A stretch of 64,000 nucleotides of DNA, counting the filler, from Stramenopiles sp. TOSAG23-6 (taxonomy: Eukaryota), in assembly GCA_900128565.1 (NCBI GenBank). It is 40 parts of 40 records of this genome, joined end to end, with 100 filler letters (N's around TTAATTAATTAA, not from the genome) between each part and the next. Parts side by side here need not be neighbours in the genome. Positions count along the whole stretch, not along the records: positions 41,845 to 43,345 come from LT638961.1; 39 more parts are not named here. The stretch is one strand, 5' to 3'. The notes below the pieces were generated by a model. That model was not told the origin of the DNA. It was given only the letters and a program-made list of their open reading frames with translations, and made no database searches. The position numbers and the translations under genes were made by a program. Of the stretch, positions 12,910-60,888 are shown one piece after another (within the stretch, counting starts at the first letter, position 1; each line of letters opens with the position of its first letter).

Positions 12910-14421
12910 GACGATGATTTCTTGTTAAACATTGGATGTATTTGTTTTTTCGATTTCATGTTTTTCTCTTCTTCTATTCTAGCATCGGATACAATATCTA
13001 ATGACGATGTAGATGATATATTTTCATCTAAAACATCGTTTATTTCAGTATTCTTTTCAGCATTGAAATTTTCTTCCAATTTATTTTGAGGTGAAGTAGA
13101 ATTCGGGTTAGGCTTACATTCTTCTTTTTCTTTGACTATGTTAACTCCAGATTCAACAACTTTGTTTTTTTGTATCACAGTATTATCTTTGCATTCTTTT
13201 GTGTCTTTTTTGTTGCTACTATTTTGTTCTATGACGGACTCACTTTTTGTAGTACATTTTATCTTAGTATTGATGTCAACTTTTGCAACGAGTTGTTCAT
13301 CTTCATCATCGGAGTCAATAATTATTTTCTGTTGCCGCTTTGATTGAGTAAGTTTTCGTTTTGAAACTTCAATTTCAACACAAGGATCTGTTTTTTTATC
13401 ACCAACAGGGCTAAAAAATGACGTCATACGTTTTGTAGTTTGAGGAAAAGTTTCGACCTCATGATCGTCATGTAATTTTGTGAAAATATTTCAAACATTT
13501 GATGTTTTGTTAGGTACAAAATTTTGTTTTCGTAAAAAAAAAAAAAAAAAACTTGAAATAAAAGATGAAAACTTACATCATCTATATCCATACTATCATC
13601 AATATCATCACCAAGTATTTTGTAAAAATATTTCAAAAAAAAATTCGTTAGGTACAAAATTTCGTACGAAATTTTGTACCTAACGAATTTTTTTTTGAAA
13701 TATTTTTACAAAATACTTGGTGATGATATTGATGATAGTATGGATATAGATGATGTAAGTTTTCATCTTTTATTTCAAGTTTTTTTTTTTTTTTTTTACG
13801 AAAACAAAATTTTGTACCTAACAAAACATCAAATGTTTGAAATATTTTCACAAAATTACATGACGATCATGAGGTCGAAACTTTTCCTCAAACTACAAAA
13901 CGTATGACGTCATTTTTTAGCCCTGTTGGTGATAAAAAAACAGATCCTTGTGTTGAAATTGAAGTTTCAAAACGAAAACTTACTCAATCAAAGCGGCAAC
14001 AGAAAATAATTATTGACTCCGATGATGAAGATGAACAACTCGTTGCAAAAGTTGACATCAATACTAAGATAAAATGTACTACAAAAAGTGAGTCCGTCAT
14101 AGAACAAAATAGTAGCAACAAAAAAGACACAAAAGAATGCAAAGATAATACTGTGATACAAAAAAACAAAGTTGTTGAATCTGGAGTTAACATAGTCAAA
14201 GAAAAAGAAGAATGTAAGCCTAACCCGAATTCTACTTCACCTCAAAATAAATTGGAAGAAAATTTCAATGCTGAAAAGAATACTGAAATAAACGATGTTT
14301 TAGATGAAAATATATCATCTACATCGTCATTAGATATTGTATCCGATGCTAGAATAGAAGAAGAGAAAAACATGAAATCGAAAAAACAAATACATCCAAT
14401 GTTTAACAAGAAATCATCGTC
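12910..14421. repeat. Whole-contig perfect palindrome (probable fold-back or assembly artefact)
   Basis: Mirror-image ORFs with the symmetry axis at 13665/13666, inside the intron palindrome TTTCGTACGAAA. Confidence 0.9.
13719..14421 (+). CDS. Low-complexity hypothetical protein exons with GT-AT intron 13755-13861
   Basis: GAT|GTAAG...TTACAT|GAC joins in frame to the 13904 ORF. A mirrored copy lies on the minus strand. Confidence 0.55.
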
Positions 14422-34489: not shown

Positions 34490-35184
34490 TTAAGAAATAA
34501 CTCCGCATTTTTTTCCTACTTCAATAAATGTATCTACAGCTCGGCTCACTTCCTCTGGTGAGTGAGCGGCTGAAAGTTGTACACGAATTCTTGCCTTTCC
34601 ATGTATTGTGAAAAAAAAAAAAATTTTTTGGTAAAAAAAAATCGTTAGGTACGAAATTTACTATGAAAAAAAATTAGGTGAAAAATGAAAAAAAATAAAA
34701 CATACATGTGGAACAACAGGATAAGAAAACCCAATTACATAAATTCCTCTTTGAAGCATCTCATCAGCCATCTCACTAGCAAGCCGAGCATCACCAAGCA
34801 TGTATTTTGAAAAAATATTTTTTTTTTTTTGTACAATTTGAATTTTTTTTTTGTTAGGTATAAAATAAAATGTATTATAAAAAATATTTAAATTTCACAA
34901 AATAAAAAAAAAATAAATAAATAAAGAATAATAATGTTGGACACATACATGACTGGCACAATAGGATGATCTCTATCGCCCGATAGAGTAAACCCTGCAG
35001 CGGTCAAACCATCTCGGAAAGTGTGTGCGTTTTTTCGTGTTTTTTCGACGGCATCAGATGATGCTTGCAGCATTTCAAATACTTTAATGGATGCTCCAAC
35101 TACAGGCGGTGCCATTGAATTTGAAAATAAATAAGGTCGCGCACGTTGACGAAGAAGATCGATAATTTCTTTACGACCTGTTGT
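34490..35184 (-). CDS. GCAT: 2-amino-3-ketobutyrate CoA ligase (glycine C-acetyltransferase), last three exons
   Basis: [33 protein letters not shown] and [31 protein letters not shown] introns 34800-34948 and 34601-34705; the upstream acceptor is TACAG. Confidence 0.92.
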
Positions 35185-40240: not shown

Positions 40241-41520
40241 ATGTTTGCTTTTACATGATAAAAATATTTATTTATTTCAAATACTATTGACATATCGTAC
40301 AGAATATTCTGTGTACGTTTGTTTTTATTAAAATGATGAATGATGTTTGCTTTTACATGATCAAAATATTTTTTTATTTTAAATACTATTGACATATTGT
40401 ACAGAATATTGTTGGTATTTTTGTTTTTATTTAAAAGATGACTGATGTTTGTTTTTACATGATAAAAATGTTTTCTTATTTCAAATACTATTTACATATT
40501 GTACACATTATTGGCCGTATTTTTGTTTTTATTCAAACAATGAATGATGTTTGCTTTAGAATGATGAAGATGTGTATTTATTTCAAATATTATTGAAATA
40601 TTGTACACATTATTTCACATATTTTTGTTTTGATTCAAACAATGAATGATGTTTGCTTTTACATGATAAAAGTGTTTATTTATTTTGTCTTGATATATTG
40701 TACAGATTATTGTATGTATTTTTTTTTTATTCAAAAGACGAATGATGTTTGCTTTTACATGATAAAAATGTATATATATTTCAAATACTCTTGATATATT
40801 GTACAGATTATTTGCAGTATTTTTTGTTTTTATTCAAAAGATGAATGATGTTTGCTTTTGCATGATAAAAATATTTATTTATTTCAAATACTATTGGCAT
40901 ATTGTACAGATTATTTGAAGCATTTTTGTTTTTATTCAAAGATTGAATGATGCTAACTTTTACATGATAAAAATGTTTATTTATTTCAAATACTATTGAC
41001 ATATTGTACAGATTATTGATAGTATTTTTGTTTTCATTCAAAAGATGAATGATGTTTGCTTTTACATGGTAAAAAACATTATTTATTTCAAATACTATTG
41101 ACATATTGTACAGATTATTGGAAGTATTTTTGTTTTTATTCAAAAGATGAATGATGTTTGCTTTTACATTATAAAAATATTTTTTTATTTTTAATACTAT
41201 TAACATATTGTATAGATTATTAAAGGTATTTCAGTTTTCATTCAAAAGATTAATGATGTTTGCTTTTACATGATACAAATGTTTATTTATTTTGAATACT
41301 ACTGACATATTGCATAGATTCTTTTGCGTATTTTTGTTTTTATTCAAAAGATGAATGGTGTTTGCTTTAGAATGATAAAGATGTGTATTTATTTTAAATA
41401 CTATTGACATATTGTACACATTATTAAAAATATTTTTGTTTTTATTCAAAAGATGAATGATGTTTGCTTTTACATGATAAAAATGTTTATTTTTTTTTTA
41501 TATATTTAACATATTGTACA
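40241..41520. repeat. ~102-bp tandem array, about 12-13 copies
   Basis: ATGTTTGCTTTTACATGATAAAA recurs about every 102 bp. Confidence 0.92.
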
Positions 41521-42176
41521 TATTAAATACCATGTTGTCAATATTTTATAATTATTAAATGCAAAACTACTATAGTTCACATTATTTACCAAACTGTGAT
41601 TAATCCATTGTCCATTAAATATATTATTCATATCATACAATATGTCCTTCTTCTTTTATGCCGGAAAAAAACCCAAAAAATGGTAAAGCAACAATTCGCA
41701 TTCAACAAGATGACATGTATGTTTTATTTTTTTTTTTACAAAAANNNNNNNNNNNNNNNNNNNNNNNNNNNNNNNNNNNNNNNNNNNNTTAATTAATTAA
41801 NNNNNNNNNNNNNNNNNNNNNNNNNNNNNNNNNNNNNNNNNNNNTTTTTTTTCGTACGAAATTTTGTACCTAACAATTTTTTTTTTTTGAAATATTTTTT
41901 CCAATACATGTATGCTGGTCTCTGGACTGATATGGCGAAAATGTATGAGACTGTTAAAGAGTTGTAGAATGTTTTGCACTACTTGACTTGTGTGGCTTCA
42001 ACGTCATAACCCTAACCCTAACTCTACGCACGAAATTTCAGAAAATGTAGGAAAAAAAAAAATAAAAAATTCCCTTAATTTTTTAAATACTTTATTTGTA
42101 ATACACGTTTATTTTTCATATCAATGTAGTTGATTTATTTATGTTATTTAGTTGTATGACTTTTTTTCTTATAAGT

Positions 42177-43291
42177 TTATTCTTTCATGGAGACTATCGA
42201 ATATCGTAATGATAAAGCAATTATTCCAAATGTCCATGTATTTTGGAAAAATATTTCAAAAAAAAAAAAAAAAAAAAAATTTCGTATGAAAAATAAATTC
42301 GAATTTTTTTGTAAAAAAAAAAAATAAAACATACATTGAATAAAAAGTAACAAAAAACACAAACTTTCTTCTTTCATTGGTCCAAAGACACCTAATGTAT
42401 TTTGGAAAAATATTTCAAGAAAAATCTAAAAAAATTTGTTAGGTACAAAATTTTTATAAAAAATAAATTCGATTTTTTTGTAAAAAAAAAATAAAACATA
42501 CATGTATTGTGAAAAAATATTTCAAAATTTTTTTTTAATTTGTTAGGTACGAAATTTCGTACGAAAAAACAAATTAAATTAGAAATTCATATAAAACCTA
42601 CATGCAACATTGATCAGTGTCCGATTCATTTGACCAGTAGATGCACATATTGTGAAAAATTATGTTTTATAGTTTGAAATTCGTTAGATATTTTACAAAA
42701 TAAGATTTAAAAAATGTGAAATGTATGATGAGAATGATACAAAATAAGATTTTTTTTTTTTTTAAATAAAAATAAATATGAAATGTATGATGAGAATGTA
42801 CATAAGAAGGCCCACGAAGTCCTGTTTTTACATTAAATATAGGAAGTCGATGTCGAGGATTTGGGATGGCACCCGGTACCCAATTTGGAATTAATTGTGG
42901 AATTGAAATGACAAAATTCAGTAATTGAGGGATCAAAAATAAAAGTAAAGTTTTTGAAAAATGACCCATGATCCCGGTAACAGCAAATGTCATTCCTGCA
43001 AAGTAGCAGAATGTATCACCAACAAAAACCGATGCCGGGAACCAATTGTAGCGTAATATGTATTTTGGAAAAATACTTTTAAAAAAAATTATAAAAAATT
43101 TGTTAGGTACAAAATTTCGTATGAAAACCAAAAAAAACAAAAAAAGTAAAACATACATACCCGCAGTTACTGCAATGAATGGACTTATCAAAGTGGCTGA
43201 TAATAAATGATTTGCGACGTAAACAGGAGGCGAATAACCAGGAGAGCCATCTCCTTGATGACTGACTAATTCATACAAATTCATTGTAAGT
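42177..43291 (-). CDS. DPAGT1: UDP-GlcNAc:dolichol-P GlcNAc-1-P transferase, 3' exons
   Basis: [24 protein letters not shown]...[17 protein letters not shown]...[23 protein letters not shown] and LRY. Five family introns. Confidence 0.93.
42395..42601 (-). mobile_element. Two back-to-back family introns (42502-42601 and 42395-42501) with a zero-length exon
   Basis: The junction reads ...CAATACAT|GTATGTTTT. Removing both units gives GCA T|TA GGT. Confidence 0.75.
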
Positions 43292-43532
43292 ATGTATTTT
43301 GGAAAAATATTTCAAAAAAAATCTAAAAAATTTTGTTAGGTACAANNNNNNNNNNNNNNNNNNNNNNNNNNNNNNNNNNNNNNNNNNNNTTAATTAATTA
43401 ANNNNNNNNNNNNNNNNNNNNNNNNNNNNNNNNNNNNNNNNNNNNTTTGGAAAAATATTTCAAAATGTTTTTTGTTAGGTACAAAATTTCGTACGAAAAA
43501 AAAATCATACAAAAAAAAAAAATAAAACATAT

Positions 43533-49835: not shown

Positions 49836-51230
49836 TTTCTTGTTTTCAAAAATACCACATCTATAAAACAATCGACCTCTATTAATATCTTTTTTTTTCG
49901 ACAAAGGTTTAACTAAAACTCGAGCAGCATATCCACACCAACATTTCGGTGCATTCTTTTCTGCTTCAGCGATTTCTACTTCCGTATTATTTTTTTTCAA
50001 TGTAAGAATATGTTTTTGAATTGGAGATTTTGAACGATTTCTGCATTTCTTTTTCATAGTTGTAGAGTTTCTTGTTTCGATATTTCTTTTTAAAAGATTA
50101 TTATTATGAGTCGTTGTCACTTTGGGAGATAAAGTCTTTACATAAAATGGAACAAAAGATAAACTTATTAATAAAAAGCCTGGTAAATATGATAGTGATG
50201 ACCAATGTCGAAGCAAAATGAAATACAGTGATATTATCATTACAACACATAATAACACTATCATTGATGTGAACATATTATTCGTTACTACTATAACATA
50301 TGGTTCTAACGGCTGCCATATCGGGAAACGTTTCACCATATAAGTACCTTCTAAGGTATAACCACGCTTACGATAATATTCTCGGGTACCGACACCAGCA
50401 ATTACAGAAATTCCTTTGAATCCAGCTGCAATGGCTTCTTTTTCGGCAGCCCGCATTAACCGTTTTCCAAATCCGGAATGTTGGGTCTCCAAATTACTAT
50501 TCTTTTCTATTACTGAATTACTAACATTACGGGTTTTACTACCTTTCTTTCTCACTTCGCGAACTTGACCGTACATGTACAAGGAAAAAATATGTCAAAT
50601 TCGAAAATTTGTTAGGTACAGAATTTGGTAAAAACAAATTGAAATTGAAATGAATGTTAAAAACATACACATGCAATTCACGAACAAGTGCTGTGTGTGC
50701 GATCTCTGGAAATACATGAGTAGAACCAAATGGTTGACTCTTACGCCATATTACATCATTGATTTTTCTATTTTCTGCAGCATCTTTTGCCTCTTTCAAT
50801 CGAGGTTTTGAGTTCTGTTTAGCAGCTATTGATGGTCGTAATGAATTTTCCTCCCAATTTAATGGAATTCCGGCATTTTGGCTTAATCGAAGTCGAAGAA
50901 ATCCAAATATTACCTCATCATTAGGGGGACCTTTTGATTCATAGGAAAGGAATATTTCACGACCACCGGATGATTTATATTCCCGACGGACTAAAACCGC
51001 ATGTAGTTTGGAAAAATATTTCAAAAAAAAATACTTAGGTACAAAATTTCGTACGAAAAAAAAATCGAATTAAAAAAAATAAAACATACATTATCCACTG
51101 ACCATTCAGGTTTTTCATTGTTACGATTTCTAATTTCACGACATCGAATACAACGACAACGTTCTCCCCGTCTTATTAGTTCCTTTTGTATAGTTTGTCG
51201 AAGATTTGTGGTTGAATTCCCACCCATGAT
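49836..51230 (-). CDS. ELP3: Elp3-like acetyltransferase C-terminal half with TM helices and a zf-GRF-like motif (copy 1)
   Basis: [52 protein letters not shown] and [19 protein letters not shown] introns 51001-51089 and 50575-50668. Confidence 0.9.
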
Positions 51231-51429
51231 ATGCATTGTGAAAAAGTATTTCAAAAAAAATAAATTGTTAGGTACAAAATTTCGTACGAAAAAAAATAAA
51301 TTCGAAATTGAAAAAAAAATAAAACATACNNNNNNNNNNNNNNNNNNNNNNNNNNNNNNNNNNNNNNNNNNNNTTAATTAATTAANNNNNNNNNNNNNNN
51401 NNNNNNNNNNNNNNNNNNNNNNNNNNNNN

Positions 51430-52824
51430 TTTCTTGTTTTCAAAAATACCACATCTATAAAACAATCGACCTCTATTAATATCTTTTTTTTTCGACAAAG
51501 GTTTAACTAAAACTCGAGCAGCATATCCACACCAACATTTCGGTGCATTCTTTTCTGCTTCAGCGATTTCTACTTCCGTATTATTTTTTTTCAATGTAAG
51601 AATATGTTTTTGAATTGGAGATTTTGAACGATTTCTGCATTTCTTTTTCATAGTTGTAGAGTTTCTTGTTTCGATATTTCTTTTTAAAAGATTATTATTA
51701 TGAGTCGTTGTCACTTTGGGAGATAAAGTCTTTACATAAAATGGAACAAAAGATAAACTTATTAATAAAAAGCCTGGTAAATATGATAGTGATGACCAAT
51801 GTCGAAGCAAAATGAAATACAGTGATATTATCATTACAACACATAATAACACTATCATTGATGTGAACATATTATTCGTTACTACTATAACATATGGTTC
51901 TAACGGCTGCCATATCGGGAAACGTTTCACCATATAAGTACCTTCTAAGGTATAACCACGCTTACGATAATATTCTCGGGTACCGACACCAGCAATTACA
52001 GAAATTCCTTTGAATCCAGCTGCAATGGCTTCTTTTTCGGCAGCCCGCATTAACCGTTTTCCAAATCCGGAATGTTGGGTCTCCAAATTACTATTCTTTT
52101 CTATTACTGAATTACTAACATTACGGGTTTTACTACCTTTCTTTCTCACTTCGCGAACTTGACCGTACATGTACAAGGAAAAAATATGTCAAATTCGAAA
52201 ATTTGTTAGGTACAGAATTTGGTAAAAACAAATTGAAATTGAAATGAATGTTAAAAACATACACATGCAATTCACGAACAAGTGCTGTGTGTGCGATCTC
52301 TGGAAATACATGAGTAGAACCAAATGGTTGACTCTTACGCCATATTACATCATTGATTTTTCTATTTTCTGCAGCATCTTTTGCCTCTTTCAATCGAGGT
52401 TTTGAGTTCTGTTTAGCAGCTATTGATGGTCGTAATGAATTTTCCTCCCAATTTAATGGAATTCCGGCATTTTGGCTTAATCGAAGTCGAAGAAATCCAA
52501 ATATTACCTCATCATTAGGGGGACCTTTTGATTCATAGGAAAGGAATATTTCACGACCACCGGATGATTTATATTCCCGACGGACTAAAACCGCATGTAG
52601 TTTGGAAAAATATTTCAAAAAAAAATACTTAGGTACAAAATTTCGTACGAAAAAAAAATCGAATTAAAAAAAATAAAACATACATTATCCACTGACCATT
52701 CAGGTTTTTCATTGTTACGATTTCTAATTTCACGACATCGAATACAACGACAACGTTCTCCCCGTCTTATTAGTTCCTTTTGTATAGTTTGTCGAAGATT
52801 TGTGGTTGAATTCCCACCCATGAT
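51430..52824 (-). CDS. ELP3: Identical Elp3-like contig (copy 2)
   Basis: Same sequence and ends, offset by 1594. Confidence 0.85.
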
Positions 52825-53023
52825 ATGCATTGTGAAAAAGTATTTCAAAAAAAATAAATTGTTAGGTACAAAATTTCGTACGAAAAAAAATAAATTCGAA
52901 ATTGAAAAAAAAATAAAACATACNNNNNNNNNNNNNNNNNNNNNNNNNNNNNNNNNNNNNNNNNNNNTTAATTAATTAANNNNNNNNNNNNNNNNNNNNN
53001 NNNNNNNNNNNNNNNNNNNNNNN

Positions 53024-54418
53024 TTTCTTGTTTTCAAAAATACCACATCTATAAAACAATCGACCTCTATTAATATCTTTTTTTTTCGACAAAGGTTTAA
53101 CTAAAACTCGAGCAGCATATCCACACCAACATTTCGGTGCATTCTTTTCTGCTTCAGCGATTTCTACTTCCGTATTATTTTTTTTCAATGTAAGAATATG
53201 TTTTTGAATTGGAGATTTTGAACGATTTCTGCATTTCTTTTTCATAGTTGTAGAGTTTCTTGTTTCGATATTTCTTTTTAAAAGATTATTATTATGAGTC
53301 GTTGTCACTTTGGGAGATAAAGTCTTTACATAAAATGGAACAAAAGATAAACTTATTAATAAAAAGCCTGGTAAATATGATAGTGATGACCAATGTCGAA
53401 GCAAAATGAAATACAGTGATATTATCATTACAACACATAATAACACTATCATTGATGTGAACATATTATTCGTTACTACTATAACATATGGTTCTAACGG
53501 CTGCCATATCGGGAAACGTTTCACCATATAAGTACCTTCTAAGGTATAACCACGCTTACGATAATATTCTCGGGTACCGACACCAGCAATTACAGAAATT
53601 CCTTTGAATCCAGCTGCAATGGCTTCTTTTTCGGCAGCCCGCATTAACCGTTTTCCAAATCCGGAATGTTGGGTCTCCAAATTACTATTCTTTTCTATTA
53701 CTGAATTACTAACATTACGGGTTTTACTACCTTTCTTTCTCACTTCGCGAACTTGACCGTACATGTACAAGGAAAAAATATGTCAAATTCGAAAATTTGT
53801 TAGGTACAGAATTTGGTAAAAACAAATTGAAATTGAAATGAATGTTAAAAACATACACATGCAATTCACGAACAAGTGCTGTGTGTGCGATCTCTGGAAA
53901 TACATGAGTAGAACCAAATGGTTGACTCTTACGCCATATTACATCATTGATTTTTCTATTTTCTGCAGCATCTTTTGCCTCTTTCAATCGAGGTTTTGAG
54001 TTCTGTTTAGCAGCTATTGATGGTCGTAATGAATTTTCCTCCCAATTTAATGGAATTCCGGCATTTTGGCTTAATCGAAGTCGAAGAAATCCAAATATTA
54101 CCTCATCATTAGGGGGACCTTTTGATTCATAGGAAAGGAATATTTCACGACCACCGGATGATTTATATTCCCGACGGACTAAAACCGCATGTAGTTTGGA
54201 AAAATATTTCAAAAAAAAATACTTAGGTACAAAATTTCGTACGAAAAAAAAATCGAATTAAAAAAAATAAAACATACATTATCCACTGACCATTCAGGTT
54301 TTTCATTGTTACGATTTCTAATTTCACGACATCGAATACAACGACAACGTTCTCCCCGTCTTATTAGTTCCTTTTGTATAGTTTGTCGAAGATTTGTGGT
54401 TGAATTCCCACCCATGAT
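53024..54418 (-). CDS. ELP3: Identical Elp3-like contig (copy 3)
   Basis: Same sequence and ends, offset by 3188. Confidence 0.85.
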
Positions 54419-54670
54419 ATGCATTGTGAAAAAGTATTTCAAAAAAAATAAATTGTTAGGTACAAAATTTCGTACGAAAAAAAATAAATTCGAAATTGAA
54501 AAAAAAATAAAACATACNNNNNNNNNNNNNNNNNNNNNNNNNNNNNNNNNNNNNNNNNNNNTTAATTAATTAANNNNNNNNNNNNNNNNNNNNNNNNNNN
54601 NNNNNNNNNNNNNNNNNACAAAATTTCGTACGAAAAATAAATTCGAAATTGAAAAAAAAATAAAACATGC

Positions 54671-57547: not shown

Positions 57548-57837
57548 GTTTTCTGTCTGGTATTGCCTATAGGTAATTTAAATTAAGATTCATCTCTTTT
57601 ATGAATTTATTTAGGAGGCATGTCGAGTAGCTATTAAGATGAGCAACTAACTTGCTCGAGAAAAAAATATATTTGAATTTAAATTTCAAATTGAATGCCA
57701 TTTTNNNNNNNNNNNNNNNNNNNNNNNNNNNNNNNNNNNNNNNNNNNNTTAATTAATTAANNNNNNNNNNNNNNNNNNNNNNNNNNNNNNNNNNNNNNNN
57801 NNNNTTCTTGAGTGTGCTAACGCTACATCATCTAAAG

Positions 57838-58311
57838 TTAATACTCTACCATCATGATATTATTATTATGATCTATTTTTATATTATTATCTATTTTTAT
57901 GTTTTCATTATTTTTCATATTAATAGGTACATTACTTAAATCAATGGCAATAAGAGGATATTTGTCTTTATTTTTTCTATTCATATTTATTCTATCTAAA
58001 GTTCCTTCCATCACTTTTTTAGCTGTCTTTTTATGAAATAATGATAATGTAAGTTTACATATAAAACAATCATTTAAAAGTTCATAAAGTGAATTTTGAA
58101 ATATACTTTCCAATGTCAATGAAGATAAATTTTGAATTTTGAGTTGAATAATAGGTTCAGTTGATTTTAAAATTGTATGTAAGGAATGATTTATATCTTT
58201 ATCTAAATTAATATTTTCATTATTATTTTGAGTCTTCATTGATGAGTTTTTACAAATAGATGACGGAGCAATGATCCAAGAAAAACTATTCTCTTGAAAA
58301 CTTTGATACAT
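57838..58311 (-). CDS. Hypothetical protein on the circular-mapping contig
   Basis: 157-aa ORF. Confidence 0.45.
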   Translation of the reverse strand: MYQSFQENSFSWIIAPSSICKNSSMKTQNNNENINLDKDINHSLHTILKSTEPIIQLKIQNLSSLTLESIFQNSLYELLNDCFICKLTLSLFHKKTAKKVMEGTLDRINMNRKNKDKYPLIAIDLSNVPINMKNNENIKIDNNIKIDHNNNIMMVEY

Positions 58312-58394
58312 TGGTTCATACTTAAAATGATTTAAATATTTTTTTTATAGTTAAATATTAATCAATAATTATTTTGATGATTAGTCACCACCTG

Positions 58395-58964
58395 TTACAG
58401 TGTAGTCACAGGATTAGTCGCCACCTGTGTTCCGGATACTACGGGTGTCGATTGTACTGCATTTGCAGATTGTACAAGAGGATTTGTATGGTTTCCTTCC
58501 ACAACAATTTTTATCCTTGATCTTTTCCACCTAAACGAAAACCCAAAATTATATACTTCTGGAAAAATTCGAATATGGTAAGATCTCAGCTGTAAATTTA
58601 TGGTGTTACAATACTCTACTGTATCTTGTTTAAATTTATTCCTACGTGAACTCATCCAACAAGATAACAATATTATTCCCACAATAAATATTCCTCCTAT
58701 GCCAATCATAACTATTTTACCATGTTTATGTGAAAAGTGAGTCTTTGCGAATACAGCCGCGGCAATTATTGATAAAATACCCAAAATTCCACAAAACATA
58801 GCACAAAATCCCCCCTTTTTAACTGGCTCATACAATTCATTTATTCGATCAAAAATGTTCAAAATTTCTTTATGTGGTACGTTGTTAAATACTGGATGTC
58901 TTAAATTAGGAGAATATGTATCACCACAGCCATATGGCCAACATTCATATCTTGTCGGCATCAT
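58395..58964 (-). CDS. Two-TM membrane protein on the circular-mapping contig
   Basis: 189-aa intronless ORF with two hydrophobic helices. Confidence 0.7.
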   Translation of the reverse strand: MMPTRYECWPYGCGDTYSPNLRHPVFNNVPHKEILNIFDRINELYEPVKKGGFCAMFCGILGILSIIAAAVFAKTHFSHKHGKIVMIGIGGIFIVGIILLSCWMSSRRNKFKQDTVEYCNTINLQLRSYHIRIFPEVYNFGFSFRWKRSRIKIVVEGNHTNPLVQSANAVQSTPVVSGTQVATNPVTTL

Positions 58965-59396
58965 ATTTTATAATTTTTAACAGTAAAACTGGACTTTCGT
59001 ACGTGATTGACAAAAGTACAAATATATGTAACAGTAACAGTACACGTACGTAGAGACAGAATATGGCAAATTGCAAAATACAACGGTCGGTATTATTTTG
59101 TAATACTTAAGACAGGTTTGCGCAAGAAGTAAGCGATTAGAGTAGTCTATTGAATTTGTTAATTAGAAATTTTGTTATTTATTTTATTACTTTTATTTTA
59201 TATTTTCAAAACAATCTTGCCAATATGCTTACTTGATTCCATTCTTGAGTGTGCTAACGCTACATCATCTAAAGTTAATACTCTACCATCATGATANNNN
59301 NNNNNNNNNNNNNNNNNNNNNNNNNNNNNNNNNNNNNNNNTTAATTAATTAANNNNNNNNNNNNNNNNNNNNNNNNNNNNNNNNNNNNNNNNNNNN

Positions 59397-60888
59397 TATC
59401 ATGATGGTAGAGTATTAACTTTAGATGATGTAGCGTTAGCACACTCAAGAATGGAATCAAGTAAGCATATTGGCAAGATTGTTTTGAAAATATAAAATAA
59501 AAGTAATAAAATAAATAACAAAATTTCTAATTAACAAATTCAATAGACTACTCTAATCGCTTACTTCTTGCGCAAACCTGTCTTAAGTATTACAAAATAA
59601 TACCGACCGTTGTATTTTGCAATTTGCCATATTCTGTCTCTACGTACGTGTACTGTTACTGTTACATATATTTGTACTTTTGTCAATCACGTACGAAAGT
59701 CCAGTTTTACTGTTAAAAATTATAAAATATGATGCCGACAAGATATGAATGTTGGCCATATGGCTGTGGTGATACATATTCTCCTAATTTAAGACATCCA
59801 GTATTTAACAACGTACCACATAAAGAAATTTTGAACATTTTTGATCGAATAAATGAATTGTATGAGCCAGTTAAAAAGGGGGGATTTTGTGCTATGTTTT
59901 GTGGAATTTTGGGTATTTTATCAATAATTGCCGCGGCTGTATTCGCAAAGACTCACTTTTCACATAAACATGGTAAAATAGTTATGATTGGCATAGGAGG
60001 AATATTTATTGTGGGAATAATATTGTTATCTTGTTGGATGAGTTCACGTAGGAATAAATTTAAACAAGATACAGTAGAGTATTGTAACACCATAAATTTA
60101 CAGCTGAGATCTTACCATATTCGAATTTTTCCAGAAGTATATAATTTTGGGTTTTCGTTTAGGTGGAAAAGATCAAGGATAAAAATTGTTGTGGAAGGAA
60201 ACCATACAAATCCTCTTGTACAATCTGCAAATGCAGTACAATCGACACCCGTAGTATCCGGAACACAGGTGGCGACTAATCCTGTGACTACACTGTAACA
60301 GGTGGTGACTAATCATCAAAATAATTATTGATTAATATTTAACTATAAAAAAAATATTTAAATCATTTTAAGTATGAACCAATGTATCAAAGTTTTCAAG
60401 AGAATAGTTTTTCTTGGATCATTGCTCCGTCATCTATTTGTAAAAACTCATCAATGAAGACTCAAAATAATAATGAAAATATTAATTTAGATAAAGATAT
60501 AAATCATTCCTTACATACAATTTTAAAATCAACTGAACCTATTATTCAACTCAAAATTCAAAATTTATCTTCATTGACATTGGAAAGTATATTTCAAAAT
60601 TCACTTTATGAACTTTTAAATGATTGTTTTATATGTAAACTTACATTATCATTATTTCATAAAAAGACAGCTAAAAAAGTGATGGAAGGAACTTTAGATA
60701 GAATAAATATGAATAGAAAAAATAAAGACAAATATCCTCTTATTGCCATTGATTTAAGTAATGTACCTATTAATATGAAAAATAATGAAAACATAAAAAT
60801 AGATAATAATATAAAAATAGATCATAATAATAATATCATGATGGTAGAGTATTAACTTTAGATGATGTAGCGTTAGCACACTCAAGAA
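59397..60888 (+). repeat. Reverse-complement duplicate of contig 57805-59296 (ORFs 59729-60298 and 60382-60855)
   Basis: Identical proteins and identical ends. Confidence 0.9.

Follow-up and report, generated by a model that had tools for sequence, protein, structure and literature searches.

How can two complete introns meet inside a coding sequence with no exon between them, and how would such a pair be removed? The question is raised by the DPAGT1 gene of Stramenopiles sp. TOSAG23-6, on the minus strand of positions 41845-43345 (G000:C6099) of the window, the whole 64,000-nt stretch of DNA that was analysed, which consists of 40 unrelated contigs of ~1.5 kb joined by spacers. Two complete introns of one family, 100 and 107 nt long, abut here at CAT/GTATG (a slash within a sequence marks a splice or target-site boundary) and occupy 207 nt in total. 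The contig ends on both sides inside further copies of the family. In a protein search, the largest exon of the locus matched DPAGT1 proteins with PF00953, and its only 100% match was a EukProt gene model labelled GSMAST32, a label that points to a marine stramenopile of the MAST-3 group. The 5′ half of DPAGT1 is on a separate contig (C1643). In addition, the gene is present only once in the assembly, so there is no second contig with which the junction can be compared. The features of the locus, from 5′ to 3′ along the gene, are as follows.

43157..43291, minus strand: DPAGT1 exon, 135 nt (spliced alignment)
43058..43156, minus strand: family intron A, 99 nt, GT...AT (sequence and spliced alignment)
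42802..43057, minus strand: DPAGT1 exon, 256 nt, best relatives with PF00953 (protein search and alignment)
42645..42801, minus strand: diverged intron B, 157 nt, containing an internal repeat (length required by the gap-free model)
42602..42644, minus strand: DPAGT1 exon upstream of the stack, 43 nt (spliced alignment)
42602..42603, minus strand: exonic AT, the first of three duplicated dinucleotides (the others at 42503-42502 and 42396-42395)
42502..42601, minus strand: unit 1 of the stack, 100 nt, donor GTAGGT, end CAATACAT (sequence and census)
42542..42549, minus strand: branch-like motif TACCTAAC of unit 1, 41 nt before the unit end (sequence)
42494..42504, minus strand: inner junction CAT/GTATGTTT with a zero-nucleotide exon (sequence and U1 pairing)
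42395..42501, minus strand: unit 2 of the stack, 107 nt, donor GTATGT, end AAATACAT / CCAAAATACAT (sequence and census)
42438..42445, minus strand: branch-like motif TACCTAAC of unit 2, 44 nt before the unit end (sequence)
42392..42394, minus strand: TAG directly past unit 2, an in-frame canonical acceptor that would cost one codon (rival 3′ splice site)
42335..42394, minus strand: DPAGT1 exon downstream of the stack, 60 nt (spliced alignment)
42236..42334, minus strand: family intron D, 99 nt, GT...AT, with the 5′ subtype of unit 2 (sequence)
42177..42235, minus strand: last DPAGT1 coding exon, including the TAA stop (spliced alignment)

The original prediction had described two complete introns stacked with a zero-nucleotide exon, and this is what is seen at 42601-42395 on the minus strand. 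Each unit has its own branch-like motif and its own AAATATTTT box; both branch motifs are perfect, and the median distance from this motif to the intron end in the family is 39 nt. Unit 1 belongs to a minor subtype (3 of the 150 single copies in the census described below), and the 5′ subtype of unit 2 is common to 10 of the 150. In a predicted fold, computed without a control, unit 1 contains the family hairpin and the two outer ends are unpaired. In the same gene, intron B fits the homologs only as GT...GT, or as an AT...AT cut of equal length that is also in frame. Intron D (42334-42236, minus strand) has a run of T at the usual place of the branch motif, which may be a degenerate branch site or an assembly collapse. 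At the other end of the contig, 41845-41969 on the plus strand holds the 3′ end of a family intron and the short final exon of a gene that converges on DPAGT1. This exon happens to begin with GTATG and so mimics the stack junction.

The removal of both units had also been predicted to give a protein collinear with DPAGT1, and the homologs bear this out. When both units and the three other introns of the contig were removed, the product was a model of 183 aa, which aligned gap-free with P0002 (133/183 identical) and with P0003 (129/183 identical). At the stack site, the spacing from N to G is six residues in the spliced model and in all 109 homologs with the motif (126 homologs were examined; 16 had no motif match and one had no anchor). 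The gap-free alignment and the constant spacing thus indicate that no DPAGT1 exon was lost, and the misassembly with a dropped exon that had been named as fatal to the prediction is not what is found. Furthermore, with 45 and 61 nt of flank, the frame opened only if both units were removed, and keeping either unit closed all three frames.

A check for spanning sequence had been proposed, and it was run on assembled contigs from four sequencing runs, two of which were RNA. Pieces flanking the stack were found, and among the pieces listed none bridged the junction at 42502/42501. For instance, an independent seawater DNA run gave near-identical pieces of the contig at 41928-42244 and 42870-43037. 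In addition, an RNA run contains an unspliced contig of 150 nt, with five differences, that extends from the 3′ part of unit 2 through the next exon into intron D, and therefore places unit 2 at this site in an independent sample. The two RNA runs cover chiefly repeat sequence, and their pieces are repeat or unspliced. Among the joints listed, which come from repeats, there was no splice joint at the stack, and none skipped one or both units. When metagenome contigs were searched for exact matches to a 22-nt exon word, 0 stretches were returned. Meanwhile, a search for transcript-derived proteins of the same species found only public gene models. The models for the two loci examined, the DPAGT1 stack and a stack in an IscA gene, are spliced differently from the double-removal reading, and at DPAGT1 the intron of the model (P0001) ends at the TAG at 42392..42394. 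Elsewhere in the window, signs of assembly redundancy or amplification were seen at 12910-14421, 49836-54517 and 57805-60888 (one fold-back contig, three identical contigs and one reverse-complement pair), and 40241-41520 is a tandem array with a unit of ~120 nt.

Both units belong to a large intron family. In the assembly, a donor-to-branch pattern had 4473 matches and the 3′ 18-mer, which comes from the end of unit 2, had 2409 exact copies, both counts including duplicated contigs; the reversed controls had 0. Since 111 of 165 census copies match the donor-to-branch pattern, the family size was estimated at ~6700 copies or more, duplicated contigs included. The census held 165 copies in all, and its 150 single copies came from ~0.84 Mb of the 21.1 Mb. 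Copies with donor-like, branch-like and 3′ motifs were admitted; N, T-rich flanks and a GC content of 27% or more were excluded. Blindly chosen DNA supplied 116 of the 150 single copies, and at least one of the 150 (L042) is really a stack member. AT precedes 106 of the 150 and ends 123, and AG ends 6. We applied a locus-specific test for target-site duplication as described in the available part of PMC9860276. Of the 27 ends other than AT, 17 repeat the dinucleotide found upstream of the intron, whereas permutation gave a mean of 1.4 and 0 of 20000 shuffles reached 17. The non-AT duplications in the family are TT, GT, AG, AA, CT and TG. When the copies were divided into thirds by their likeness to the consensus, the upstream and terminal dinucleotides were identical in 48 of 50 in the closest third and in 34-35 of 50 in each of the remaining two. 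A non-AT dinucleotide upstream of an AT end was seen in 1 of 50 in the most consensus-like third and in 11 of 50 in each other third. Such AT ends on diverged copies suggest selection or gene conversion towards an AT acceptor.

The register of the introns follows from the copies in which the two sides differ. A non-AT upstream dinucleotide with a terminal AT occurs in 23 copies versus 6 with the reverse (p=0.002). In addition, the upstream letters yield motifs such as TPLHIA and DIWAAG, which we take to be conserved protein motifs, and in one case AT would create a stop. The terminal AT and the sensible codons from the upstream letters therefore show that the intron is read GT...AT, not AT...AC. 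The U12-type AT-AC register failed the test for the same reasons: conservation falls on the 3′ copy, and sensible codons come from the upstream letters. No match to U12 snRNA was found in the incomplete assembly, where the controls were equally silent. Furthermore, removal opened the frame in 106 of 119 testable copies, versus 38-48 for shifts of 1-2 nt. The register, duplication and frame results all rest on DNA.

Several variants were also observed. Some single copies of the family contain a partial duplication of their own branch and 3′ region. A 149-nt GT...AT intron at 34948-34800 on the minus strand, in a gene that is presumably aminotransferase-like, contains another family 3′ end, at 34870, and removal of the intron reopens the frame. 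Another copy, at 43533-43446 on the minus strand and cut by the contig end, starts with ATATGTTTT after AC, not with GTATGTTTT. Outside the family, a rough search turned up just two candidate AG-ending introns, both unvalidated, and at L046:968-1149 an AG-ending intron apparently stands alongside family introns in the IscA gene.

To see which spliceosome could read these introns, we turn to the snRNAs. A tandem cluster of U5, U2, U1 and U4 was found at L136:9-645 (G000:C1146, duplicate C6122), on a contig that also carries a family copy. U6 lies outside this cluster, and the recognition motifs of U2 and U6 are standard. U1 aligns over the whole Rfam model (E=1.5e-12, 54.1 bits, below the gathering cut-off of 69.5). 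Three positions of its 5′ arm depart from the Rfam consensus, each to a base that matches the family donor. The arm is the exact complement of CATGTACGTTT, namely the family exon-intron junction CAU/GUACGUUU. This U1 beats the consensus arm on 150 of 150 census donors, with a mean of 10.2 versus 7.4 of 11 pairs, where the intron positions, unlike the exon positions, were selected by the search patterns. The last exon position (-1) is T in 137 of the 150 copies. Only one U1 was found (on the two duplicate contigs) in an incomplete assembly, from which a standard U1 could be missing. U2AF1 could not be distinguished among 15 zinc-finger matches. At DPAGT1, the U1 arm can pair with the inner junction at 11 of 11 positions (10 Watson-Crick and one G-U) and with the outer donor, that of unit 1, at 10, with a mismatch at +4.

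The stack of DPAGT1 is not alone. A genome scan with the junction word AATACATGTATGTTTT had been proposed, and it did return six stacks. As a structure the junction goes beyond coincidence, but the word by itself is not diagnostic: 22 of the 29 matches were ordinary exon ends, and one was ambiguous. A branch-anchored pattern gave 25 matches, comprising 13 stacks (11 complete and two cut by contig ends), one match into coding-like sequence and 11 exon ends. A third pattern had 12 matches at seven distinct places, with three new candidate stacks judged from the matched text only. The assembly holds at least 13 stacks. In all 11 complete stacks, only double removal opens the frame, and this restores IscA-like motifs as well as motifs that we take to be TBC-, kinesin- and RCC1-like; the IscA stack matches PF01521 and is collinear with its relative P0129. 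In three of the 11, the middle and terminal dinucleotides are the same or almost so, but the outer one departs from the middle one, and one stack has three different dinucleotides. Later changes are therefore needed in these stacks. The upstream and terminal dinucleotides differ, for example, in the kinesin stack (L033), and a candidate stack at G000:C3301:255-334 (= C5703) has GT instead of AT as its middle dinucleotide.

The number of stacks can be compared with chance. Corrected for pattern sensitivity (13; 122/165 x 128/165), the count is ~23. With AT preference alone, a simple model (6500-8000 copies, 11-17 Mb of exon) expects 15-34. When the flanking bases are weighted too, 64-150 are expected at the same copy numbers, several times above those seen; under that model, stacks may thus be under-assembled or mildly selected against. 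Stacks are not in excess, and their number is about the chance expectation, depending on the model. The strength of the inner signals across stacks is partly circular, as the search patterns required those signals. A weaker outer donor was found in 5 of 11 stacks versus 24 of 150 single copies (p=0.03), which we discount because an equally weak donor is seen in 17 of the 50 single copies that have diverged most.

Is the DPAGT1 stack real, and did it arise by two insertions? An artefact of assembly or amplification, in which two family copies were wrongly joined, would find some room in this material: the assembly is broken at these repeats, fold-back and duplicated contigs are present, no contig bridges the junction among the pieces listed, and DPAGT1 is in one copy. 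Nevertheless, no exon is missing, the join is head to tail and exact at AT between different subtypes, at least 13 loci show the same arrangement with the frame restored exactly, and the 150-nt contig ties unit 2 to the next exon and intron D. We thus regard such an artefact as very improbable, and there is a high likelihood that the stack is real. The tandem duplication of one intron by slippage or unequal crossing-over would recall the partial duplications within single copies, and yet the units do not look like duplicates. Their similarity in DPAGT1 is 0.50, the 55th percentile of random family pairs, and each has a closer relative elsewhere (0.80 and 0.82); in the 11 complete stacks, the likeness of unit to unit lies between the 10th and 71st percentiles. 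As far as the sequences can tell, a tandem duplication is largely refuted, and we give it almost no credence. The different subtypes, the random-level likeness and the closer relatives elsewhere argue for two insertions instead. The original prediction of a second element inserted into the AT at the edge of the first agrees well with the three ATs, the unlike units and the 2-bp duplications of the family, from which we infer transposition. Unit 1 is probably the older insertion, since its subtype is rarer and its donor has mutated; the order cannot be read from the three ATs by themselves. Local hopping from the neighbouring intron D was considered and rejected, for the 5′ subtype is shared with unit 2 but the overall similarity reaches only the 72nd percentile.

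We therefore come to how the stack would form and be removed. The element, GTAY...ATAC and ~100 nt long, would duplicate 2 bp on insertion and bring its own donor and branch site, and its 3′ splice site would be taken from the duplicated dinucleotide, mostly AT. Each copy would leave AT at both edges, and the arrival of a later copy at one of these would produce AT[unit]AT[unit]AT, in which no exon separates the two units. For the DPAGT1 pair, the unit of the rarer subtype was probably inserted first, and its 3′ AT then served as the target for the common subtype. Equipped with a U1 arm that reads CAU/GUA(C/U)GUUU, the major spliceosome would treat each unit as an ordinary short intron, and the units would most likely be removed successively. 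If unit 1 went first, GCAU/GUAUGUUU would be regenerated as an equally strong donor, which is the recursive order; if unit 2 went first, unit 1 would remain as a complete intron. One step, or two steps in either order, gives an identical mRNA. Since each unit is a normal family intron, two ordinary reactions appear most likely, and the inner junction, a full donor for the U1 found, also favours removal in two steps. On balance we think it fairly probable that the stack is a neutral by-product of an introner family, its units being removed one after another. The splicing steps themselves we infer from these signals, which make recursive removal plausible. The AT/GT ratchet point of the original prediction thus holds in form, with pairing at all 11 U1 positions of the inner junction, and its use in recursion is a prediction.

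Excision of all 207 nt at once, between the outer donor and the final AT and with the inner signals as unused leftovers, seems unlikely to us. It gives the same mRNA, length alone would be no bar, as the 157-nt intron in the same gene shows, and no intermediate was seen among the RNA joints listed. However, the inner donor has 11 pairs with U1 against 10 and the +4 mismatch of the outer one, both branch motifs are perfect and stand at distances typical of the family, and a stronger donor and a full 3′ end would have to be skipped. In fungal complex introns, moreover, the smallest possible intron is spliced first, according to the available part of PMC7138796. The last cut may instead fall at the TAG 3 nt past unit 2, which would make a 210-nt GT-AG intron and a protein one residue shorter (NVA-C-VFGP). 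This acceptor is in frame and ends the intron of P0001. Among other copies, only 1 of 142 is followed by AG at this position (8.2 expected, p=0.002 before correction for 14 positions), and the scarcity suggests that such an AG competes. Against this cut, all 109 motif-bearing homologs have the six residues from N to G, and the Leu that it would remove is retained in 108. In addition, an in-frame AG within 12 nt downstream is found in only 36 of the 144 copies that do not end in AG, so rescue by AG cannot account for the family. We consider this reading quite doubtful. Successive removal of the two units at their ATs is the account that we carry forward.

The stack had been said to support AT-targeted insertion directly, and this goes too far. 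U1 pairs with the exon-terminal CAU, and the stack is therefore no direct proof of AT targeting; the same bias could be selected by this pairing, and other dinucleotides are duplicated too. It may well be, though we lean slightly the other way, that the AT bias reflects splicing selection and not transposase targeting, with loose insertion and the survival of copies after (C)AT that pair with U1. The complementarity of U1 to exon CAU, the existence of non-AT duplications and the rise of AT ends after a non-AT dinucleotide from 1 of 50 to 11 of 50 outside the most consensus-like third would all fit. This reading, which includes a drift of the 3′ copy to AT by selection or by gene conversion among copies, concerns the cause of the AT bias and is compatible with the account that we favour. 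On the other side, the bases flanking AT are symmetric, with C enriched 2.1-fold at -3 and G 2.5-fold at +1, as a dimeric transposase would give. Both of these biases are also usual spliceosomal or exon preferences. Furthermore, transposons that duplicate AT do exist, as reported in the accessible text of PMC4482050.

The commonest ends of the family, GTATGTTTT and CCAAAATAC, share an inverted repeat, exact over 4 nt and imperfect over ~8 nt, which is too short for a firm assignment. A search with PF13359 for an autonomous partner gave five matches at two distinct loci, and in the stretches examined around Harbinger-like transposases in that one search, no matching family ends were found. Harbinger-like DDE_Tnp_4 transposases lie at L133:143-2769 and L132:389-1648. 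In L133, the transposase faces a second ORF, which we take to be Myb/SANT-like, and a fragment of intron core lies just past the stop of that ORF.

The stack alone is an expected by-product and needs no special function; the surprising part is a family of AT-ending introns with a matching U1. A bolder reading, which we offer tentatively, is that the transposon family and the major spliceosome have jointly shifted CAG/GU...CAG/G to CAU/GU...CAU/G, with U1 compensating opposite the last exon base. Under this reading, the two ends of the element would rebuild a splice site, and repeated insertion would therefore make true ratchet points, with zero-nucleotide exons, in introns of 200 nt that are removed recursively. 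If so, recursive splice sites can arise from mobile introns in one step. The locus offers a test case. With a 200-nt intron made of two complete units, it can be decided whether removal takes one step or two, and the nearby TAG, 3 nt beyond unit 2, can test whether this spliceosome prefers AT or a neighbouring AG. Thousands of introns appear to end in AT in this marine protist, public gene models mis-splice them, and the stack lies in an essential gene. If RNA confirms the pattern, this would be one of the rare cases in nature in which a splice-site rule that holds almost everywhere has been rewired, here in connection with a transposon that makes introns.

A literature search, with most subscription journals outside its scope, found no paper on this AT-ending family or on stacked introners, and the available main text of PMC12130899 has no mention of MAST, stramenopile, GT-AT, nested or tandem. 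The comparisons below draw on the available parts of the cited papers. In introners of the Chrysochromulina type, the donor is carried by the element and the 3′ splice site comes from the target duplication (PMC9860276). The present family shares this arrangement, a carried 5′ splice site with an acceptor from the duplication, as well as the many similar short introns at unrelated sites, the locus-specific duplication and an mRNA that would be left unchanged. Repeated similar introns at unrelated gene positions and a locus-specific duplication are the introner traits that the family displays. However, the duplication here is 2 bp and mostly AT, hence the acceptor is not AG, and the head-to-tail stacks have no counterpart described for the Chrysochromulina type in that part of PMC9860276. 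ISL2EU elements of the PHIS transposons also duplicate AT, and a DDE_Tnp_4 transposase is present in this genome. ISL2EU elements prefer A/AT/T, have inverted repeats that usually start with GG and were reported from animals only (PMC4482050), whereas the context here is C/AT/G and the ends start with GT, so the family does not fit ISL2EU.

The ratchet points of Drosophila are AG/GT sites, mainly in long introns, which are conserved and need a cryptic exon (PMC8605326). The DPAGT1 junction is like them in that an acceptor stands directly against a donor with a zero-nucleotide exon, and a donor would be regenerated after the first cut. The resemblance is one of form: the core is AT/GT in place of AG/GT, the intron is 207 nt and not long, and the site, whose use is putative, joins two complete mobile units. 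The stwintrons and other complex introns of fungi consist of two U2 units removed by consecutive reactions or in one step (PMC7138796), and they share with the stack a short complex intervening sequence of two intron units. In stwintrons, one unit is nested in the other and interrupts its donor, branch point or acceptor, whereas the DPAGT1 units are uninterrupted, lie side by side, and would work in either order.

The closest case of a major spliceosome that accepts non-AG ends genome-wide is Fritillaria borealis, in which 95% of introns escape GT/AG, the non-canonical introns are linked with transposons, U2AF is duplicated and the 5′ end of U1 is unchanged (PMC13326754). The present family differs in its strict GT donor and mainly AT acceptor, and in that the U1 arm itself is changed. 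An altered U1 pairing arm that fits an atypical donor is known from Entamoeba and Mastigamoeba (10.1101/2022.06.08.495308). The ACGUAC core is the same as in Mastigamoeba, and the U1 pairing extends to +7 as in Entamoeba. The changes described there lie opposite intron positions, whereas the U1 found here is also changed opposite the last exon base (C to A), which fits the duplication of AT.
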